DNA from: a virus
Lineage: Duplodnaviria; Heunggongvirae; Uroviricota; Caudoviricetes
Strand: one strand, 5' to 3'
IMG/VR virus record: IMGVR_UViG_2565956716_000008
DNA length: 40,864 nucleotides
Shown here: positions 5,583 to 38,216 of the stretch, piece after piece
Numbering within the stretch: position 1 is the stretch's first letter
How the letters are laid out: every line of letters begins with the position of its first letter
Notes under the pieces: generated by a model
Databases searched by the model: none
What the model was told of the DNA's origin: nothing
Seen by the model: the letters and a program-made list of their open reading frames with translations, nothing else
Translations under genes and position numbers: made by a program

Positions 5583-5719
5583 TTTGCTGCTCCTCATCAT
5601 ATCGACCCTGCAAGGTCGGTTGGTTTCTCCACAAAACAGAGAAGAACACCTGCGGTGGCAGCCGCCCGGATGGATTGGGTTATGAGCCCGTCGTCCGGTG
5701 ATGCTCTTCTCTGTTTTGT

Positions 5720-5765
5720 AAAAAGAGCGGTACCAGCCGGAAGCAAGTGTACAAACTGGTACCGC
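5720..5765 (-). terminator. candidate intrinsic terminator in early-left operon leader
   Basis: gcggtaccag / ctggtaccgc 10-bp stem followed on minus strand by tcttttt. Confidence 0.35.
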
Positions 5766-6019
5766 GAGGACTACACACAGCATAAAGTTGTGGTGCCGGG
5801 TGCCTCCCGGTGCCTGGCGAAGGTTGCACACCAGGCGGGTGGGTATCCACAGAAGGTCGACTGTCAGCCTCAACCTTAACCCGCGTGCGCTGAGCCGCAT
5901 TCACCACAACGCTAAGGATTCTCTCTGGTTGAAAATACTTAGCTGTTATGTGCCTGTCTTTTCACCACTTCAGGCTCGGTGGTATCCTTTTAAGCCCGTA
6001 TACATAAAAGGAAAATCAA

Positions 6020-6265
6020 ATGACTTTTGATGAAAAAGAACTTGATAATGCAATTAATAAAATCATCGTAACGTCGCTCTTTTCCTGTCTCAGCGACACT
6101 CAGCAGAAACAGTTCTACGAATCGGCTTTCAACATGATCGAGCGTTGTTGTTTCTGCGATGCCGACGAGTTACCTGAAAAAATCAGGAAACAGTTGGCTG
6201 ATGCTCTTCGAGTGCGACTTTCTGACCAATTTTCTGAAATGTGCTCTCCGAATTTGGACAAATAG
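6020..6265 (+). CDS. hypothetical protein (81 aa) in AT-rich immunity-region insert
   Basis: AAGGA RBS 8 nt before ATG; overlaps 3' end of convergent ORF 6183..6458. Confidence 0.3.
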   Translation: MTFDEKELDNAINKIIVTSLFSCLSDTQQKQFYESAFNMIERCCFCDADELPEKIRKQLADALRVRLSDQFSEMCSPNLDK

Positions 6266-6458
6266 AAAAAGGCCATTTCCATTCAGGGTCTGATGGAAAT
6301 ACTTCAGCCTGTTCCAAAGCACGGCGTAAAGAGAATACAACTCCAGCCATAATCTGATGTTTCCCATTGGTCCAGCTATCGCCGCTCTGATCTACAGGAG
6401 CGGCTATGTCGTATGACCAAACGACTTCACCACTATTGTTTAAAATCTGGACTTTCAT
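6183..6458 (-). CDS. hypothetical protein (91 aa), first ORF downstream of PL
   Basis: GGAGG upstream of ATG; convergent 83-bp overlap with 6020..6265. Confidence 0.3.
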   Translation of the reverse strand: MKVQILNNSGEVVWSYDIAAPVDQSGDSWTNGKHQIMAGVVFSLRRALEQAEVFPSDPEWKWPFSICPNSESTFQKIGQKVALEEHQPTVS

Positions 6459-6577
6459 TTTGTTCTTTAACCTCCAGATACGGGCGTTTAATGGCCCCGC
6501 CGAACAGCTCTTTTCCGCAATAGCTGCAATGTCTTTCGCGCATCAGCCTGCGCATTCACCACAACTCTAAAAACAAA

Positions 6578-6628
6578 TGTAGGATATCCAACATGTGAGT
6601 GTCAAGAGTTTATGTTGGTTATCCTACA
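6578..6628. promoter_or_regulatory. OL-like operator pair with leftward promoter (PL)
   Basis: tgtaggatatccaaca (6578-6593) and tgttggttatcctaca (6613-6628); minus-strand TTGACA at 6600-6605 between them. Confidence 0.5.
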
Positions 6629-6643
6629 TAAAAAGATAGGCTC

Positions 6644-6670
6644 ATAAAAAAACCGGGGATACCCCGGTTT
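6644..6670 (-). terminator. rho-independent terminator after repressor gene
   Basis: ccggggtatccccgg hairpin followed by 7 T on minus strand. Confidence 0.6.
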
Positions 6671-6691
6671 TGCGATAGTGAGGAAGATGTG

Positions 6692-7345
6692 TCAAAAATC
6701 CATTATTACTTGTTTGACAAGACCAACTATTCTGCAGTTCTCACCGCATTCAATAGTTTTATAGTTAGGATTTAGTGGGACGAGATACCTGTTCGGCCAG
6801 TCCTCAACAAATTTTTTGAGTGTCGCTTCTTGCCCACCATTGATATGGGCAACAACGATTTTTCCGTTAATACACTCTGTATCAATAATATCTGGCTCTA
6901 CGATAACGATAGAACCTTCTGGTATCGATGGTGAGCCGAGGGGATTGGTCATTGAATCACCACGGACCCGTAGTGCAAATGCCATTTCTGATACAAGGGC
7001 GGTAGTATAAACCCACTCTTCAGCATCTTCTTTCCTGACACCAGGCTCCGTCATTGTCCATGAACCCGCCTGAACCCACGAGATGAGGGGGACTTTTTTA
7101 ACTGCGAATATTTCAGGTTTTAGATTTATCTTTGGTTCAGGCGAGCCTTTTCCGCTAACAAGCCACAGAGGATCGCATTTAAGTGCGTTGGCTAGGGCTT
7201 GAAGGTTGGCTCCATTTGGTTGGTAGTCGTCCTTTTCCCATCCAGTAACCGTGACACGGTTCACACCAGTCAAATCAGCCAGTGCTTGTTGTGTCAGGTT
7301 CAGTTCTTTTCGCCTTTGGCGAATACGATCACTCATGTTCATCAT
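6692..7345 (-). CDS. cI-like repressor (HTH plus S24 LexA-type peptidase domain)
   Basis: N-terminal HTH (LTQQALADLTGVNRVTV), AG cleavage site, GDSM serine and C-terminal lysine; divergent from Cro-like gene. Confidence 0.8.
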   Translation of the reverse strand: MMNMSDRIRQRRKELNLTQQALADLTGVNRVTVTGWEKDDYQPNGANLQALANALKCDPLWLVSGKGSPEPKINLKPEIFAVKKVPLISWVQAGSWTMTEPGVRKEDAEEWVYTTALVSEMAFALRVRGDSMTNPLGSPSIPEGSIVIVEPDIIDTECINGKIVVAHINGGQEATLKKFVEDWPNRYLVPLNPNYKTIECGENCRIVGLVKQVIMDF

Positions 7346-7409
7346 GTAGGCAATCCTACCACATGCCCATGTAGGATTCTTGACATTGGTATGTTGGATA
7401 TCCTACATT
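7344..7409. promoter_or_regulatory. OR-like operators with rightward promoter (PR)
   Basis: three TGTAGG/CCTACA-type palindromes (7344-7361, 7371-7386, 7392-7407); TTGACA 7380-7385, 18-nt spacer, TACATT. Confidence 0.5.
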
Positions 7410-7440
7410 TCTGCTTAACGTAATTTAACGGGAGACAGAA

Positions 7441-7638
7441 ATGTGGAAATCCGACGTGATTAATTATTTCGGCGGAGTTTGTAAAACCGCCGAAGCCCTA
7501 GGTATTAAGCATCCGTCTGTTTCAGAGTGGCCTGAGATTATTCCTGAAGGCCGAGCGTACCAGTTAGAAAAAATTACTAACGGGAAACTGAAAGTTGACG
7601 TGTCTTTATATCAAAAGACTAACAGTGCTGCGGCATAA
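7441..7638 (+). CDS. Cro-like small DNA-binding protein
   Basis: 65 aa, divergent from repressor, GGAG RBS, Cro/YdaS-like sequence character. Confidence 0.55.
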   Translation: MWKSDVINYFGGVCKTAEALGIKHPSVSEWPEIIPEGRAYQLEKITNGKLKVDVSLYQKTNSAAA

Positions 7639-7665
7639 AAACACCACAGAAATGAGGAATTAACC

Positions 7666-8250
7666 GTGGGTAAAGAACCTGAATGGAAAGTTGATAAACA
7701 ACCAGCATGGCTGGTGGCAGCAATACGAAGAACGATTGCTGATTTACCTCATGGCTATGAGGAAGCAGCAGAAATTCTTGGTTTGTATAAATCTGATGAT
7801 ATCACCCCAGCAAAAGATCAATTGCATAACAGACTGCGTAGCGGTGGGGATCAAATTTTTCCACTTGAGTGGGCCATGGTTTTACAGGATGCCAGTGGTA
7901 CCAGGCATGTAACAGATGCAATAGCCCGTCGTAGTAATGGGGTGTTTGTGCCGCTGGTGGTCATTGATGACATTGACAATGGTGACATTAATCAGCGGCT
8001 GATGGAGTCAATAGAATGGATTGGCAAGCATTCCCAGTACTTACGCAAGGCAACTGCTGATGGAGTTATTGACCAAGCTGAGCGTGAGCAAATCGAAGAG
8101 AACAGCTACCAAGTAATGGCGAAGTGGCAGGAGCATTTAACACTGTTATTTCGTGTTTTTTGTGCGCCGGAAAAGAGTAACGCCCGCGAGTGTGCAGCTC
8201 CGGGCGTCGTGGCGTCGATTGCTTCTGGTTGTGGAGAAACTAACGCATGA
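7666..8250 (+). CDS. phage regulatory protein, CII/YdaT-like (tentative)
   Basis: position after cro; weak similarity by eye. Confidence 0.35.
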
Positions 8251-10027: not shown

Positions 10028-10680
10028 TGAGTAATAAATATTGCCAGGCGCTGGCGGAACTGCGGAACAAACCAGCCCATGAACTGAAGGAAGTGGGCGA
10101 TCAGTGGCGCACGCCGGACAACATTTTCTGGGGAATTAACACCCTGTTTGGCCCGTTTGTTCTGGATCTGTTCACTGACGGTGATAACGCCAAATGTGCT
10201 GCGTATTACACGGCGGAAGACAACGCGCTGGCGCATGACTGGTCAGAACGCCTTGCGGAGCTTAAAGGTGCTGCCTTTGGTAATCCCCCATACAGCCGCG
10301 CCAGTCAGCATGAGGGGCAATACATCACCGGCATGCGTTACATCATGAAGCATGCCAGTGCCATGCGTGATAAAGGCGGGCGCTATGTTTTCCTGATCAA
10401 AGCTGCCACCAGCGAAGTGTGGTGGCCGGAAGATGCAGATCATATTGCTTTTATTCGCGGGCGTATTGGTTTTGAACTGCCTGCCTGGTTTATCCCGAAG
10501 GATGAGAAGCAGGTGCCGACAGGCGCTTTCTTCGCTGGTGCTATTGCTGTTTTCGACAAGACCTGGAAGGGACCGGCAATCAGCTACATCGGGCGCGATG
10601 AACTTGAGGCATGTGGTGAGGCCTTTCTGGCGCAGGTTCGCCAGCAGGCAGAAAAACTGGTCAGGGAGATGGCGGCATGA
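10027..10680 (+). CDS. phage Dam-like DNA N6-adenine methyltransferase
   Basis: FGNPPYS catalytic motif; start ATG overlaps upstream stop (TAATG); track ORF 5' extension rejected. Confidence 0.65.
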   Translation: MSNKYCQALAELRNKPAHELKEVGDQWRTPDNIFWGINTLFGPFVLDLFTDGDNAKCAAYYTAEDNALAHDWSERLAELKGAAFGNPPYSRASQHEGQYITGMRYIMKHASAMRDKGGRYVFLIKAATSEVWWPEDADHIAFIRGRIGFELPAWFIPKDEKQVPTGAFFAGAIAVFDKTWKGPAISYIGRDELEACGEAFLAQVRQQAEKLVREMAA

Positions 10681-11003
10681 CGACGTTAACTCAATGCCAG
10701 CAGCAGGTGCTGGATATGCTGATTTCTTATCAGAAAGAACGTGGCTTCCCGCCAACCAATCAGGAGGTGGCAACCATGCTGGGATACCGTTCAGTGAATG
10801 CAGCGGTGGAGCATCTTCGCGCACTGGAGAAAAAAGGCGTCATCACGATAAAGCGTGGCGTGGCCCGGGGCATCACGCTTCATACCGCGGTGAAGGACGA
10901 CGACAGCGAGGCGGTCGGGATTATCCGCGCACTGCTTGCCGGTGAGGCAAACGCCAGGCTGCGTGCAGCCCACTGGTTACATGAGAGGGGCCTGAAAGTA
11001 TGA
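10677..11003 (+). CDS. LexA-like DNA-binding-domain protein (no peptidase domain)
   Basis: N-terminal LexA-type winged helix pattern (LTQCQQQVLDMLISYQKERGFPPTNQEVATMLGYRS). Confidence 0.45.
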   Translation: MTTLTQCQQQVLDMLISYQKERGFPPTNQEVATMLGYRSVNAAVEHLRALEKKGVITIKRGVARGITLHTAVKDDDSEAVGIIRALLAGEANARLRAAHWLHERGLKV

Positions 11004-11408: not shown

Positions 11409-12218
11409 ATGAATAATCTGATGGTTATTGATGGTATTGAAGTTCGTCGTGATGCTTATGGGCGTTACAGCCTGAACGATCTGCATCGCGCAGCAGTAGC
11501 ATCTGGTGCAAATGCCAGAACCAAGGAGCCAGGAAAGTTTCTTTCCAGCCAACAAACTGTTGAGCTTGTTCATGAATTAACCAACACCCAGAATTTGGGT
11601 GTTGACCCGGTGAGTGTGATTCATGGGGGAAATGAACGGGGAACGTATGTCTGTAAGGAACTGGTGTATGCCTATGCAATGTGGATCAGCCCGTCATTCC
11701 ATCTGAAGGTGATCCGTACTTTCGATATGGTAACCAGCGCACCGGAAAAATTATCCGGACAGGCTGCTGACAAGATGCAGGCTGGCGTGATTCTGCTGGA
11801 CTTTATGCGCCGGGAGTTAAATCTGTCTAACTCATCTGTGCTTGGGGCCTGTCAGAAACTCCAGGAGGCTGTTGGCTTACCGAATCTGGCACCGCGCTAT
11901 GCCATTGATGCACCTGCTGACGCGCCTGATGGCTCAAGCCGCCCCACGCTGTCGCTGAGTGCACTGCTGAAGCAGTATGGTATCCGCCTGACGGCTAATC
12001 AGGCATATCACCAGATGGTGAAGCTGGGGATCGTCGAGCAGCGCGAACGATACAGCCGTACCGGGATTAACAACATCAAAAAATTCTGGTCGCTGACGGC
12101 GAAAGGCTGCATGTTCGGCAAGAACATCACCAGTCCCGCAAATCCGCGTGAGACGCAGCCGCATTTCTTCGAATCCCGATTCCCTGAGCTGTTAAAGCTG
12201 CTCGATACCGTTCATTGA
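11409..12218 (+). CDS. KilA-N domain protein (putative antirepressor)
   Basis: N-terminal KilA-N pattern (GTYVCKELVYAYAMWISPSFHLKV). Confidence 0.6.
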   Translation: MNNLMVIDGIEVRRDAYGRYSLNDLHRAAVASGANARTKEPGKFLSSQQTVELVHELTNTQNLGVDPVSVIHGGNERGTYVCKELVYAYAMWISPSFHLKVIRTFDMVTSAPEKLSGQAADKMQAGVILLDFMRRELNLSNSSVLGACQKLQEAVGLPNLAPRYAIDAPADAPDGSSRPTLSLSALLKQYGIRLTANQAYHQMVKLGIVEQRERYSRTGINNIKKFWSLTAKGCMFGKNITSPANPRETQPHFFESRFPELLKLLDTVH

Positions 12219-14587: not shown

Positions 14588-15640
14588 ATGAAAAATACTG
14601 TAAAAATAAACAGTGTTGATTTAATCAACGCTGATTGCCTGCATTTTATTCAGTCCCTGCCTGATGATTCCATTGACCTGATTGTTACCGATCCGCCTTA
14701 CTTCAAGGTGAAACCTAACGGTTGGGACAATCAGTGGAAAGGGGACGAAGATTACCTTAAGTGGCTGGACCACTGTCTGGCCCAGTTCTGGCGGGTGTTG
14801 AAACCTGCCGGAAGCCTTTACCTGTTCTGTGGGCATCGCCTGGCATCTGATATTGAGATCATGATGCGTGAACGTTTCAACGTGCTTAACCATATCATCT
14901 GGGCGAAGCCGTCCGGACGTTGGAATGGGTGTAATAAAGAAAGTCTGCGCGCATATTTTCCTGCCACAGAGCGCGTTCTGTTTGCTGAACATTACCAGGG
15001 GCCATATCGCGGCAAAAGTGACGGCTATGCGGCAAAAGAAAGGGAACTCAAACAGCACATAATGGCACCGCTGATATCGTATTTCAGGGATGCTCGTGCC
15101 GAACTGGGTATAACGGCAAAACAAATTGCCGAAGCCACAGGTAAGAAAAATATGGTTTCCCACTGGTTTGGTGCCAGTCAGTGGCAGTTGCCGAATGAGG
15201 CTGACTATCGGAAGTTACAGGCACTGTTTTCCCGTATAGCGGCAGAGAAGTTTCAGGAACAACAACTGGAACAACCACACCACCAGCTGGTGGCATCTTA
15301 TGATTCACTGAATCGCAAATATTCTGAATTGCTGGATGAGTTTAAATCTCTCCGGCGCTATTTCTCCGTATCAGTCTCCGTGCCTTATACCGATGTCTGG
15401 ACGCATAAGCCCGTTCAGTTCTACCCGGGTAAACATCCGTGCGAGAAACCGGCGGATATGCTCCGGCAAATAATCAATGCCAGTAGTCGACCTGGTGATC
15501 TGGTTGCTGATTTCTTTATGGGATCCGGTTCCACAATAAAAGCAGCAATGGCGCTGGGGCGTCGGGCGTTAGGTGTTGAACTTGAGTCAGAGCGGTTTAA
15601 TCAGACGGTGAAAGAGGTAAGTGAACTGGTGGGGAAATAA
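14588..15640 (+). CDS. DNA methyltransferase, DPPY-motif N6/N4 class
   Basis: VTDPPY motif near N-terminus and FxGSGST AdoMet-binding motif near C-terminus. Confidence 0.7.
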   Translation: MKNTVKINSVDLINADCLHFIQSLPDDSIDLIVTDPPYFKVKPNGWDNQWKGDEDYLKWLDHCLAQFWRVLKPAGSLYLFCGHRLASDIEIMMRERFNVLNHIIWAKPSGRWNGCNKESLRAYFPATERVLFAEHYQGPYRGKSDGYAAKERELKQHIMAPLISYFRDARAELGITAKQIAEATGKKNMVSHWFGASQWQLPNEADYRKLQALFSRIAAEKFQEQQLEQPHHQLVASYDSLNRKYSELLDEFKSLRRYFSVSVSVPYTDVWTHKPVQFYPGKHPCEKPADMLRQIINASSRPGDLVADFFMGSGSTIKAAMALGRRALGVELESERFNQTVKEVSELVGK

Positions 15641-15644
15641 TTCT

Positions 15645-15670
15645 GGTGGCCACGTTGCGTGGCCTTTTTA
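15645..15670 (+). terminator. candidate rho-independent terminator
   Basis: ggccacg-ttg-cgtggcc hairpin followed by ttttta. Confidence 0.5.
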
Positions 15671-15716
15671 TTTCCAACACAGCACCCGCAAATATCGCGA
15701 GGTGAGAGATGACGAA

Positions 15717-16052
15717 ATGCCTCATAACCCAAATACCTGGCCGGACTGGCTGGAGTTGTTTCAGAGCTGGTGGCGTGGAGACACACCGCTGGGTGCAGTG
15801 ATTATGTCGATCGTTATGGCTGGTTTGCGCATCGCCTATTTTGGCGGTGGTGGTGGCTGGAAGCGAAAAACGCTCGAGATTTTGCTATGTGGCGCTCTGA
15901 CGCTGACCTTTGCATCCGCTCTTGAATATGTCGGATGGCCTAAATCGCTTTCTGTTGCCATTGGTGGTGGCGTGGGGCTGATCGGTGTCGATGCTATTCG
16001 TGGGGCTGCAATGCGAGTAATCGGTAACAAATTTGGTAGCTCGAAGGAGTAA
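15717..16052 (+). CDS. holin (lambda S-like, three predicted TM segments)
   Basis: 111 aa, three hydrophobic segments, charged C-terminus, directly upstream of endolysin. Confidence 0.55.
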   Translation: MPHNPNTWPDWLELFQSWWRGDTPLGAVIMSIVMAGLRIAYFGGGGGWKRKTLEILLCGALTLTFASALEYVGWPKSLSVAIGGGVGLIGVDAIRGAAMRVIGNKFGSSKE

Positions 16053-37954: not shown

Positions 37955-38203
37955 TTAGTGAACAAACCACTCGTCAGCAGATTCCCAGGTATCTTTCAGA
38001 GTCTCCTGAACAAAAGTTTTTGCAGAATCCTTATCTGCGGTGCGTGTAACAGAAAGGCCATCGTTGCTGGTGGCTTTTACGATCACCTCTACATCGTCAT
38101 AACGTTTACTGATGCGTCGGGTTAATTCTTCCTTTAACGCATCCACAGCACCGGTTGGCATTTTAGTCATTTTTTCTTTGGCTATGCAGATTTCAATACG
38201 CAT
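37955..38203 (-). CDS. DinI-like SOS-response protein
   Basis: 82 aa, MRIE...[10 protein letters not shown] DinI signature; LexA boxes in promoter. Confidence 0.7.
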
Positions 38204-38216
38204 AAAAGTCCCTCTA

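Follow-up and report, generated by a model that had tools for sequence, protein, structure and literature searches.

The window, that is, the whole stretch of DNA that was analysed (40,864 nt), contains an entire E. coli prophage with a contractile tail, and its integration site adjoins the host gene dusA. A Panacea-domain gene lies at the left end; genes for Q, a holin, the terminase, the tail sheath and an invertase are found elsewhere, and with its integrase, terminase, tail sheath, holin and Q the prophage looks complete from its gene content. The region described here holds a repressor gene, placed between two clusters of palindromic operators, and a P22-type cro gene that diverges from it (Table 1). 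The first gene after cro encodes a YmfL-like protein, which is likely to be an establishment regulator. Downstream of PL a 91-aa protein of unknown function is encoded, and no N-like gene was found after this promoter.

A search of Rfam over 6100-7700 gave no credible match (a single one, E = 0.088); the sole above-threshold Rfam match in the window was STnc100 (5718-5940). The 86-bp stretch 6480-6565 was considered as a structured RNA and was rejected, as it folded no better than its shuffles (z -0.29).

Table 1. Coordinates of the immunity region and of the other prophage genes named in the text.
Feature	Coordinates	Strand	Description
PL	6576..6605	-	-35 TTGACA (6605..6600), 18-nt spacer, -10 TACATT (6581..6576); consensus scan, 10/12
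OL1	6577..6594	.	ATGTAGGATATCCAACAT; covers PL spacer and -10
OL2	6612..6629	.	ATGTTGGTTATCCTACAT; upstream of PL -35
Intrinsic terminator of the repressor transcript, predicted	6642..6671	-	stem AAAACCGGGG/CCCCGGUUUU, then U run
Repressor gene	6692..7345	-	217 aa; between the two operator clusters
OR3	7344..7361	.	ATGTAGGCAATCCTACCA; overlaps repressor start codon
Candidate PRM -10	7353..7358	-	TAGGAT, inside OR3; read from the sequence
OR2	7369..7386	.	ATGTAGGATTCTTGACAT; degenerate, right half = PR -35
PR	7380..7409	+	-35 TTGACA (7380-7385), 18-nt spacer, -10 TACATT (7404-7409); consensus scan, 10/12
OR1	7391..7408	.	ATGTTGGATATCCTACAT, reverse complement of OL1; covers PR spacer and -10
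cro	7441..7638	+	65 aa; P22_Cro family, 1.4e-21; P22 Cro structure 1rzs, 2.5e-12
YmfL-like protein gene	7666..8250	+	194 aa; weak CII (CP76) domain PF06892, 28.8 bits, cut-off 26; RefSeq name
LexA DNA-binding-domain protein gene	10677-11003		108 aa; LexA DNA-binding domain alone (PF01726)
KilA-N protein gene	11409-12218		
Holin gene	15621-16052		
Integrase gene	38265-39362		abuts host gene dusA

Operators, promoters and repressor

The operators were detected as a 16-bp repeat, TGTAGGATATCCAACA (6578-6593), TGTTGGTTATCCTACA (6613-6628), TGTTGGATATCCTACA (7392-7407) and TGTAGGCAATCCTACC (7345-7360). TGTTGGATATCCTACA is the exact reverse complement of TGTAGGATATCCAACA, and TGTTGGTTATCCTACA is its near reverse complement. 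The repeat finder lengthens this unit to 18-19 bp, and the natural unit of the operator is 18 bp, A-TGTWGG-N4-CCWACA-T (ATGTWGG-N4-CCWACAT). When three or fewer mismatches to the 16-mer were allowed, three places (six strand matches) were found in 40.9 kb, against 0.17 expected, and none of 100 shuffles reached six. The pattern TGTWGG-N4-CCWACA with at most one mismatch adds the site at 7345-7360; it gave four sites against 0.25 expected, a count again attained in none of 100 shuffles. The hexamer GATATC (an EcoRV site) stands at the centre of OL1 and OR1 and is absent from OL2 and OR3.

The arrangement proposed in an earlier, sequence-only reading, with two operators to the left of the repressor gene (OL1 and OL2) and three in the cI/cro intergenic region (OR3, OR2 and OR1), was borne out. 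All five sequences are present as claimed; the fifth, OR2, is degenerate, and its 16-mer lies at 7370-7385, one base from the 7371-7386 given in that reading. The left half of OR2 is perfect and its right half keeps the outer ATGT alone. When the whole window was scanned with a weight matrix, the four strong sites scored 20.9-30.0 and OR2 scored 8.9 (rank 8), so by sequence alone it is indistinguishable from background; it is backed by its position and by its conservation in relatives. The start-to-start distance is 35 bp from OL1 to OL2, as it is in mEp390 and phage 21, 25 bp from OR3 to OR2, and 22 bp from OR2 to OR1 (23 bp in mEp390 and phage 21). In OR3 the outer half departs from the consensus (TGGTAGG), and this departure is retained in most of 50 variants. 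Further operators elsewhere in the prophage were looked for and rejected: the next-best match, at 15928 inside the holin gene, scored far lower (13.8). A third OL site was likewise rejected; bases 6630-6644 hold no convincing half-sites and are 33% conserved.

Both early promoters were recovered by the consensus scan in the form claimed, TTGACA, an 18-nt spacer and TACATT, and in both the operator takes in positions 6-18 of the spacer together with bases 1-5 of the -10 element; the sequence-only reading had likewise placed an operator across spacer and -10 element. The -35 element of PL (TGTCAA on the plus strand) is invariant among relatives. On the repressor strand OR3 reads TGGTAGGATTGCCTACATG, with TAGGAT seven bases ahead of the ATG; TA..AT or TA...T is retained at this place in relatives. 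This hexamer is a plausible -10 element of a maintenance promoter (PRM). The candidate was not listed by the consensus scan and its -35 element is poor, which would fit a promoter that needs help from OR2-bound repressor.

The hairpin between the repressor stop codon and OL2 has the features of an intrinsic terminator (-17 kcal/mol, z -3.6; none of 200 shuffles folds as well). In relatives the stem has another sequence and is still self-complementary, as judged from an alignment read by eye.

The repressor carries an HTH_3 domain (PF01381, residues 8-62, 1.1e-15) and a Peptidase_S24 domain (PF00717, 3.7e-25). Lambda cI (3bdn, 7e-25) can be aligned with the whole of the protein; the first 66 residues match structures of the P22 C2 N-terminal domain (~4e-14), and the C-terminal S24 domain matches residues 101-229 of lambda cI (~1e-22). 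By these PDB and Pfam matches, which fix the family, the protein is of the lambdoid cI/C2-type class (HTH_3 + S24), with the P22 C2/Cro scaffold within it. The predicted recognition helix, GVNRVTVTGWE, comprises residues 27-37. In the linker a self-cleavage site, VQA93-G94, is aligned with the VQAG of lambda. The catalytic serine, Ser131 (in GDSMT), corresponds in the alignment to Ser149 of lambda cI, and Lys177 to the residue that was changed in the lambda K192A structures; both residues are invariant in mEp390 and phage 21. The S24 domain is intact, as had been claimed. The description of the protein as LexA-like holds for this domain and fails for the DNA-binding domain, which is of P22 C2 type and not a LexA winged helix. 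PF01726, the LexA winged helix, gave no match on the repressor in the domain search, and assignment of the protein as a LexA was rejected because this domain is lacking and the box spacing is wrong (ATGT-N10-ACAT instead of CTGT-N8-ACAG).

Conservation and polymorphism of the module

A 1.3-kb module recurs, with identities of 99% or more, in vB_EcoM-720R4, in SKA5, in the Stx1 phage Lys8385Vzw and in three Stx2c phages, and 140 of 5426 complete E. coli genomes carry it almost in full. Among GTDB species genomes, repressor homologues were found in Erwinia tracheiphila (90% identical), Enterobacter soli (84%) and Pantoea brenneri (76%); the repressor of mEp390 is 61% identical. The operators stay in place beside repressors that are 49-90% identical to that of the window (Enterobacter, Erwinia, Pantoea, mEp390 and IMG/VR contigs).

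A footprint alignment of the window with Enterobacter soli, Erwinia tracheiphila, Pantoea brenneri and mEp390 (repressors 61-90% identical) gave identities to the window of 99% for OR3, 94% for OR1, 90% for OR2, 90% for OL1 and 72% for OL2, against 14-41% for the inter-site spacers and leaders. For OL1 the adjacent leader is 27% identical in the same four relatives.

A motif scan for the same operator, proposed with the sequence-only reading, found the exact OR1 18-mer in 99 IMG/VR contigs. In 96 of these a repressor homologue (49-100% identical) lies within ~50-110 bp; two of the other three are chance matches inside unrelated structural genes, and one is cut off by the end of the contig. Sixteen distinct N-terminal domains were recovered in this way, from proteins of 49-100% overall identity, and every one retains GVNRVT(V/L)TGWE; since the sample was picked by its operator, this records co-occurrence of helix and operator and not an unbiased correlation. 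Taken as a whole, the observation made in the sequence-only reading was confirmed, its interpretation is supported, and all of its testable parts held.

The operator consensus together with the helix GVNRVTVTGWE would define an immunity group that can be recognised by sequence. It spans Stx1- and Stx2c-converting phages as well as prophages of Enterobacter, Erwinia and Pantoea. Deposited records label the repressor merely as "cI" or "LexA family", and in the searchable literature the operator string occurred in no relevant paper, only as unrelated matches; nor did that literature hold binding, footprint, transcription-start or cleavage data for the repressor. Searches on mEp390 immunity and on vB_EcoM-720R4 returned nothing useful. 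The design of the switch is textbook and the value of the assignment is mainly practical, as recognition by sequence helps to predict superinfection immunity and which repressor gates the induction of a toxin phage.

As a separate observation, the coding sequences and operators of the module are near-invariant in closely related copies and a few bases between the sites are highly polymorphic. Among 61 IMG/VR copies that share at least 95% identity with the window, nucleotide diversity (pi) was 0.0046 at third codon positions of the repressor gene, 0.0024 at those of cro and 0.006 at operator bases. It was 0.22 in the OR2-OR1 spacer (7387-7390), 0.10 in the OR3-OR2 spacer (7362-7368) and 0.20-0.30 per site at the PL spacer sites 6596-6598. 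Three of the four sites of the OR2-OR1 spacer have three alleles, and position 7410, just past the PR -10 element, is tri-allelic too. Thirty-one copies that share one identical repressor-plus-cro coding haplotype carry 13 spacer haplotypes, with at least 16 changes in 16 spacer sites versus 15 in 284 third positions (p = 6e-13). The pattern recurs, with 9 spacer changes versus 5 (p = 5e-9), in 13 metagenome contigs obtained by a scan with a plain 19-mer, none of them a duplicate of an IMG/VR copy. The polymorphism is visible as well in a sister lineage of 83% identity.

Selection on the exact OR1 18-mer cannot explain the spacer diversity, because OR1 alone was conditioned, and, as single bases are changed, patches imported from diverged modules are an unlikely source. 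We suggest tentatively, and with more doubt than conviction, that bases 6596-6598, 7366-7368, 7388-7390 and 7410 are under recurrent selection or lie in a mutational hot spot, and that the changes retune promoter strength or repressor cooperativity. The set-point of the switch (the spontaneous induction rate) might then evolve fast in natural E. coli lysogens, with repressor, Cro and operators frozen. If selection proves to be real, the hypervariable spacers would amount to a natural experiment on the tuning of a genetic switch.

Proposed working of the switch and alternative readings

The region is very probably the immunity module, that is, the lysis-lysogeny switch, of a complete prophage, with a P22 C2-type repressor acting on 18-bp operators. 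Repressor dimers would bind these operators through the P22 C2-type helix-turn-helix; each monomer would read one of the outer 7-bp halves (ATGTAGG or ATGTTGG), probably with no contact to the central 4 bp. Occupation of OL1 and OL2 would block PL, and that of OR1 and OR2 would block PR, RNA polymerase being excluded because the operators lie over the -10 element, the spacer and the -35 element. The leftward early genes, cro, the cII-like gene and the replication genes should thereby be silent in the lysogen.

Transcription of the repressor gene probably begins at a weak promoter in OR3, with a candidate start at or beside the repressor ATG (7345), to give a leaderless or near-leaderless mRNA that would end at the terminator at 6642-6671. 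At high levels of repressor, or with Cro present, the off-consensus OR3 would be filled and PRM switched off. Retention of the off-consensus outer half in relatives suggests that OR3 is a deliberately weaker site, which would serve negative autoregulation or Cro.

After DNA damage, activated RecA would stimulate self-cleavage at Ala93-Gly94 by Ser131/Lys177. The DNA-binding domain would be parted from the domain for dimerisation and cooperativity, PR and PL would fire and Cro would take over. We infer this SOS induction, which the sequence-only reading had also expected, from the conserved residues; it gains indirect experimental support from phage Lys8385Vzw (see below).

Antirepressors bring about induction in several enterobacterial prophages whose repressors are S24-like, and the repressor of the window might likewise be cleaved inefficiently in vivo, its S24 domain serving mostly for dimerisation and induction proceeding via the KilA-N protein as antirepressor or via other SOS-linked genes. 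The prophage does hold candidates for such a route, namely the KilA-N protein, the protein that consists of a LexA DNA-binding domain alone, and a dinI homologue that sits behind two LexA boxes. Against this, the Ala-Gly pair, the serine and the lysine are all conserved in a C-terminal domain that matches lambda cI at ~1e-22, and none of the four LexA boxes found in the window precedes the KilA-N gene. Moreover, a phage with a different backbone and the same module is mitomycin C-inducible: Lys8385Vzw, which shares the module alone (99.7% identical over 6480-7700), was obtained by mitomycin C induction, with no uninduced control cited (PMC7946995). We consider induction by another route improbable, and self-cleavage is retained as the predicted trigger.

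A somewhat less improbable alternative, still an unlikely one, concerns the number of sites: OR might hold two real operators, OR1 and OR3, with 7369-7386 being the PR -35 element plus a chance half-site. The lambda-style cooperativity between OR1 and OR2 and the OR2-dependent activation of the maintenance promoter would then both fall away. The weight-matrix rank of this site, below the unrelated one at 15928, speaks for such a two-site OR, as does the left half in the Erwinia and Pantoea relatives, which is AGGTAAG and not ATGTAGG. In most variants, however, the left half ATGTAGG and the right outer ATGT are both retained, and in the four relatives OR2 is 90% identical versus 14-31% for its flanking spacers, part of this conservation being due to the -35 element. 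The same spacing (25 and 22-23 bp) is found in phage 21/P22, where the site in the place of OR2 is just as degenerate. An OR of three sites is preferred.

That the palindromes are chance repeats, or serve something unrelated (host LexA or a restriction system, for example), is effectively refuted. GATATC at the centre of OL1 and OR1, and a superficial likeness of TGT...ACA to an SOS box, could be cited for it; yet OL2 and OR3 are conserved without GATATC, none of the 100 shuffles attains the observed count, and one and the same recognition helix accompanies the sites in different genera. Their spacing is ATGT-N10-ACAT and not the CTGT-N8-ACAG of a LexA box, four of which are present in the window, all away from the operators.

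Comparison with known switches

The cryptic prophage e14 of E. coli K-12 has the same order of an S24 repressor, a divergent cro-like gene and a YmfL-family protein, and its S24 domain is 35% identical to that of the window repressor. The N-terminal domain of YmfK and the whole of YmfT are, however, without similarity to window proteins, and the e14 intergenic region bears repeats of GGTACA type. YmfK/YmfT were therefore rejected as a model: the DNA-binding domain, the cro gene and the operators are all unrelated, and the alignment is limited to the S24 domain.

The switch resembles that of lambda in its S24 domain, with equivalents of the Ala-Gly pair, the serine and the lysine conserved, and in its design, with divergent repressor and cro genes, a three-part OR, operator pairs on PL and a terminator that follows the repressor gene. 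The maintenance transcript may be leaderless in the window, as in lambda. It differs from lambda in the HTH subtype, in the operators, which are 18 bp here and 17 bp in lambda with unrelated sequences, and in an OL of two sites instead of three. The distance between OL and OR is just 814 bp, because no rex genes follow the repressor.

In mEp390 (NC_019721) the recognition helix and OR3 are identical, the layout of PL and PR is the same, and the remaining sites are close variants (ATGTAAG/ATGTAGG) at the same spacings. Its Cro, by contrast, is 57% identical, one extra base is found at OR2, the -10 element of PR is TACTAT, and the phage has a different, siphovirus backbone.

The repressors of P22 and phage 21 are 44-46% identical to that of the window over their full length. 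Both switches use an 18-bp operator of 7+4+7 bp, with spacings of 25, 22-23 and 35 bp; in phage 21/P22, too, the start codon of the repressor gene adjoins or lies partly within OR3, and of the OR sites the middle one is degenerate. Because spacings and layout agree, the regulatory region is taken to be homologous, and not just analogous, to that of phage 21. The P22 repressor occupies an 18-bp site, of which the outer halves are contacted and the central 4 bp are not (PMC4267663); Asn44 of the window repressor corresponds to P22 Asn46, which organises minor-groove water at this uncontacted centre (PMC4267663). Unlike P22/21, the window has neither a candidate third OL site nor an N gene after PL, and its promoter lies ~12 bp further right relative to the operators: the PR -35 element is the right half of OR2 here, whereas the -35 element of phage 21 runs into OR2 at its left edge, and the start of OR1 falls within the -10 element.

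Specificity sets these switches further apart. Operator position 3, a change of which lowers the affinity of P22 repressor at least 16-fold (the specificity base; PMC4267663), is T in P22 and G in the window. The helix SNVAISQWE goes with the half-site ATTTAAG in 21/P22, SDVAVGYWE with AACTAAG in vB_EcoS-569R4, and NRVTVTGWE with ATGTAGG, ATGTTGG and ATGTAAG in the window and mEp390; T4, A5 and G7 are common to the half-sites of the three groups, and positions 2, 3 and 6 differ. As helix (NRVTVTG versus SNVAISQ) and half-site both differ, the immunity is not that of P22/21, and the two should be heteroimmune. The comparison is consistent with a separate immunity specificity, due to the changed helix and new among switches of a well-known kind; alongside P22/21 (ATTTAAG) and 569R4 (AACTAAG), the window would form a natural series on how helix 3 re-aims a P22-type repressor.

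Polymorphism and restriction sites in the operator regions

Variation in the spacers (the few bases separating the repressor operators and the -35 hexamers of the early promoters PL and PR) was assessed in 61 natural copies from IMG/VR that are at least 95% identical to the window. Polymorphism was 10-50 times higher at spacer bases than at the third positions of repressor and cro codons; several spacer positions were tri-allelic. Among 31 copies sharing one coding sequence, 13 spacer haplotypes were found (p = 6e-13), and the hyperpolymorphism was seen again in 13 metagenome contigs. The polymorphic spacer positions are 6596-6598, 7366-7368, 7388-7390 and 7410. EcoRV sites (GATATC) form the centres of the operators OL1 (6583-6588) and OR1 (7397-7402), which is probably incidental.

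LexA-related features and integration site

Since a DinI-family gene with two LexA boxes directly upstream is present (region 37955-38262; see table), the prophage also encodes an SOS-controlled RecA modulator. The two boxes sit just past the integrase stop codon. The integrase itself abuts the 5′ end of host dusA (region 38265-40488), which suggests insertion of the element next to this gene; on the other side, the prophage junction (left) lies near zur and dinF in one matching genome. The S24 domain is absent from a 108-aa protein with a LexA DNA-binding domain alone, encoded in the nin-like region with RusA and a KilA-N protein as neighbours. A further LexA-box-like sequence was located at the beginning of a DNA methylase ORF.

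Positions and database matches of individual features
Feature	Position	Strand	Details
STnc100 sRNA family match	5718-5940	minus	RF02076; Rfam, 49.1 bits (gathering score 47)
Protein with LexA DNA-binding domain alone, 108 aa	10677-11003		PF01726, 2.9e-19
DNA methylase ORF	14588-15640		PF01555; between Q and holin
LexA-box-like sequence CTGTAAAAATAAACAG	14598-14613		
DinI-family gene, 82 aa	37955-38203	minus	PF06183, 1.1e-19
LexA box CTGTGTTTGTATACAG	38219		immediately upstream of DinI-family gene; rated good
LexA box CTGTATAGATAAACAG	38247		immediately upstream of DinI-family gene; rated good

PL leader and leftward early operon

Downstream of PL, the leftward early operon contains the STnc100 match. 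An 86-bp stretch of the PL leader (6480-6565) showed no significant RNA fold and no match in an Rfam search; a minus-strand ORF of 40 aa (6433-6555; MRRLMRERHCSYCGKEL...) begins within it. The stretch recurs with 97-99% identity in otherwise unrelated phages, including Stx2a phages, Klebsiella phages and P1-like phages, in the last of which it adjoins tRNA-Thr and plp. Phage mEp460 belongs to this set as well, and there the stretch likewise adjoins an S24 repressor.
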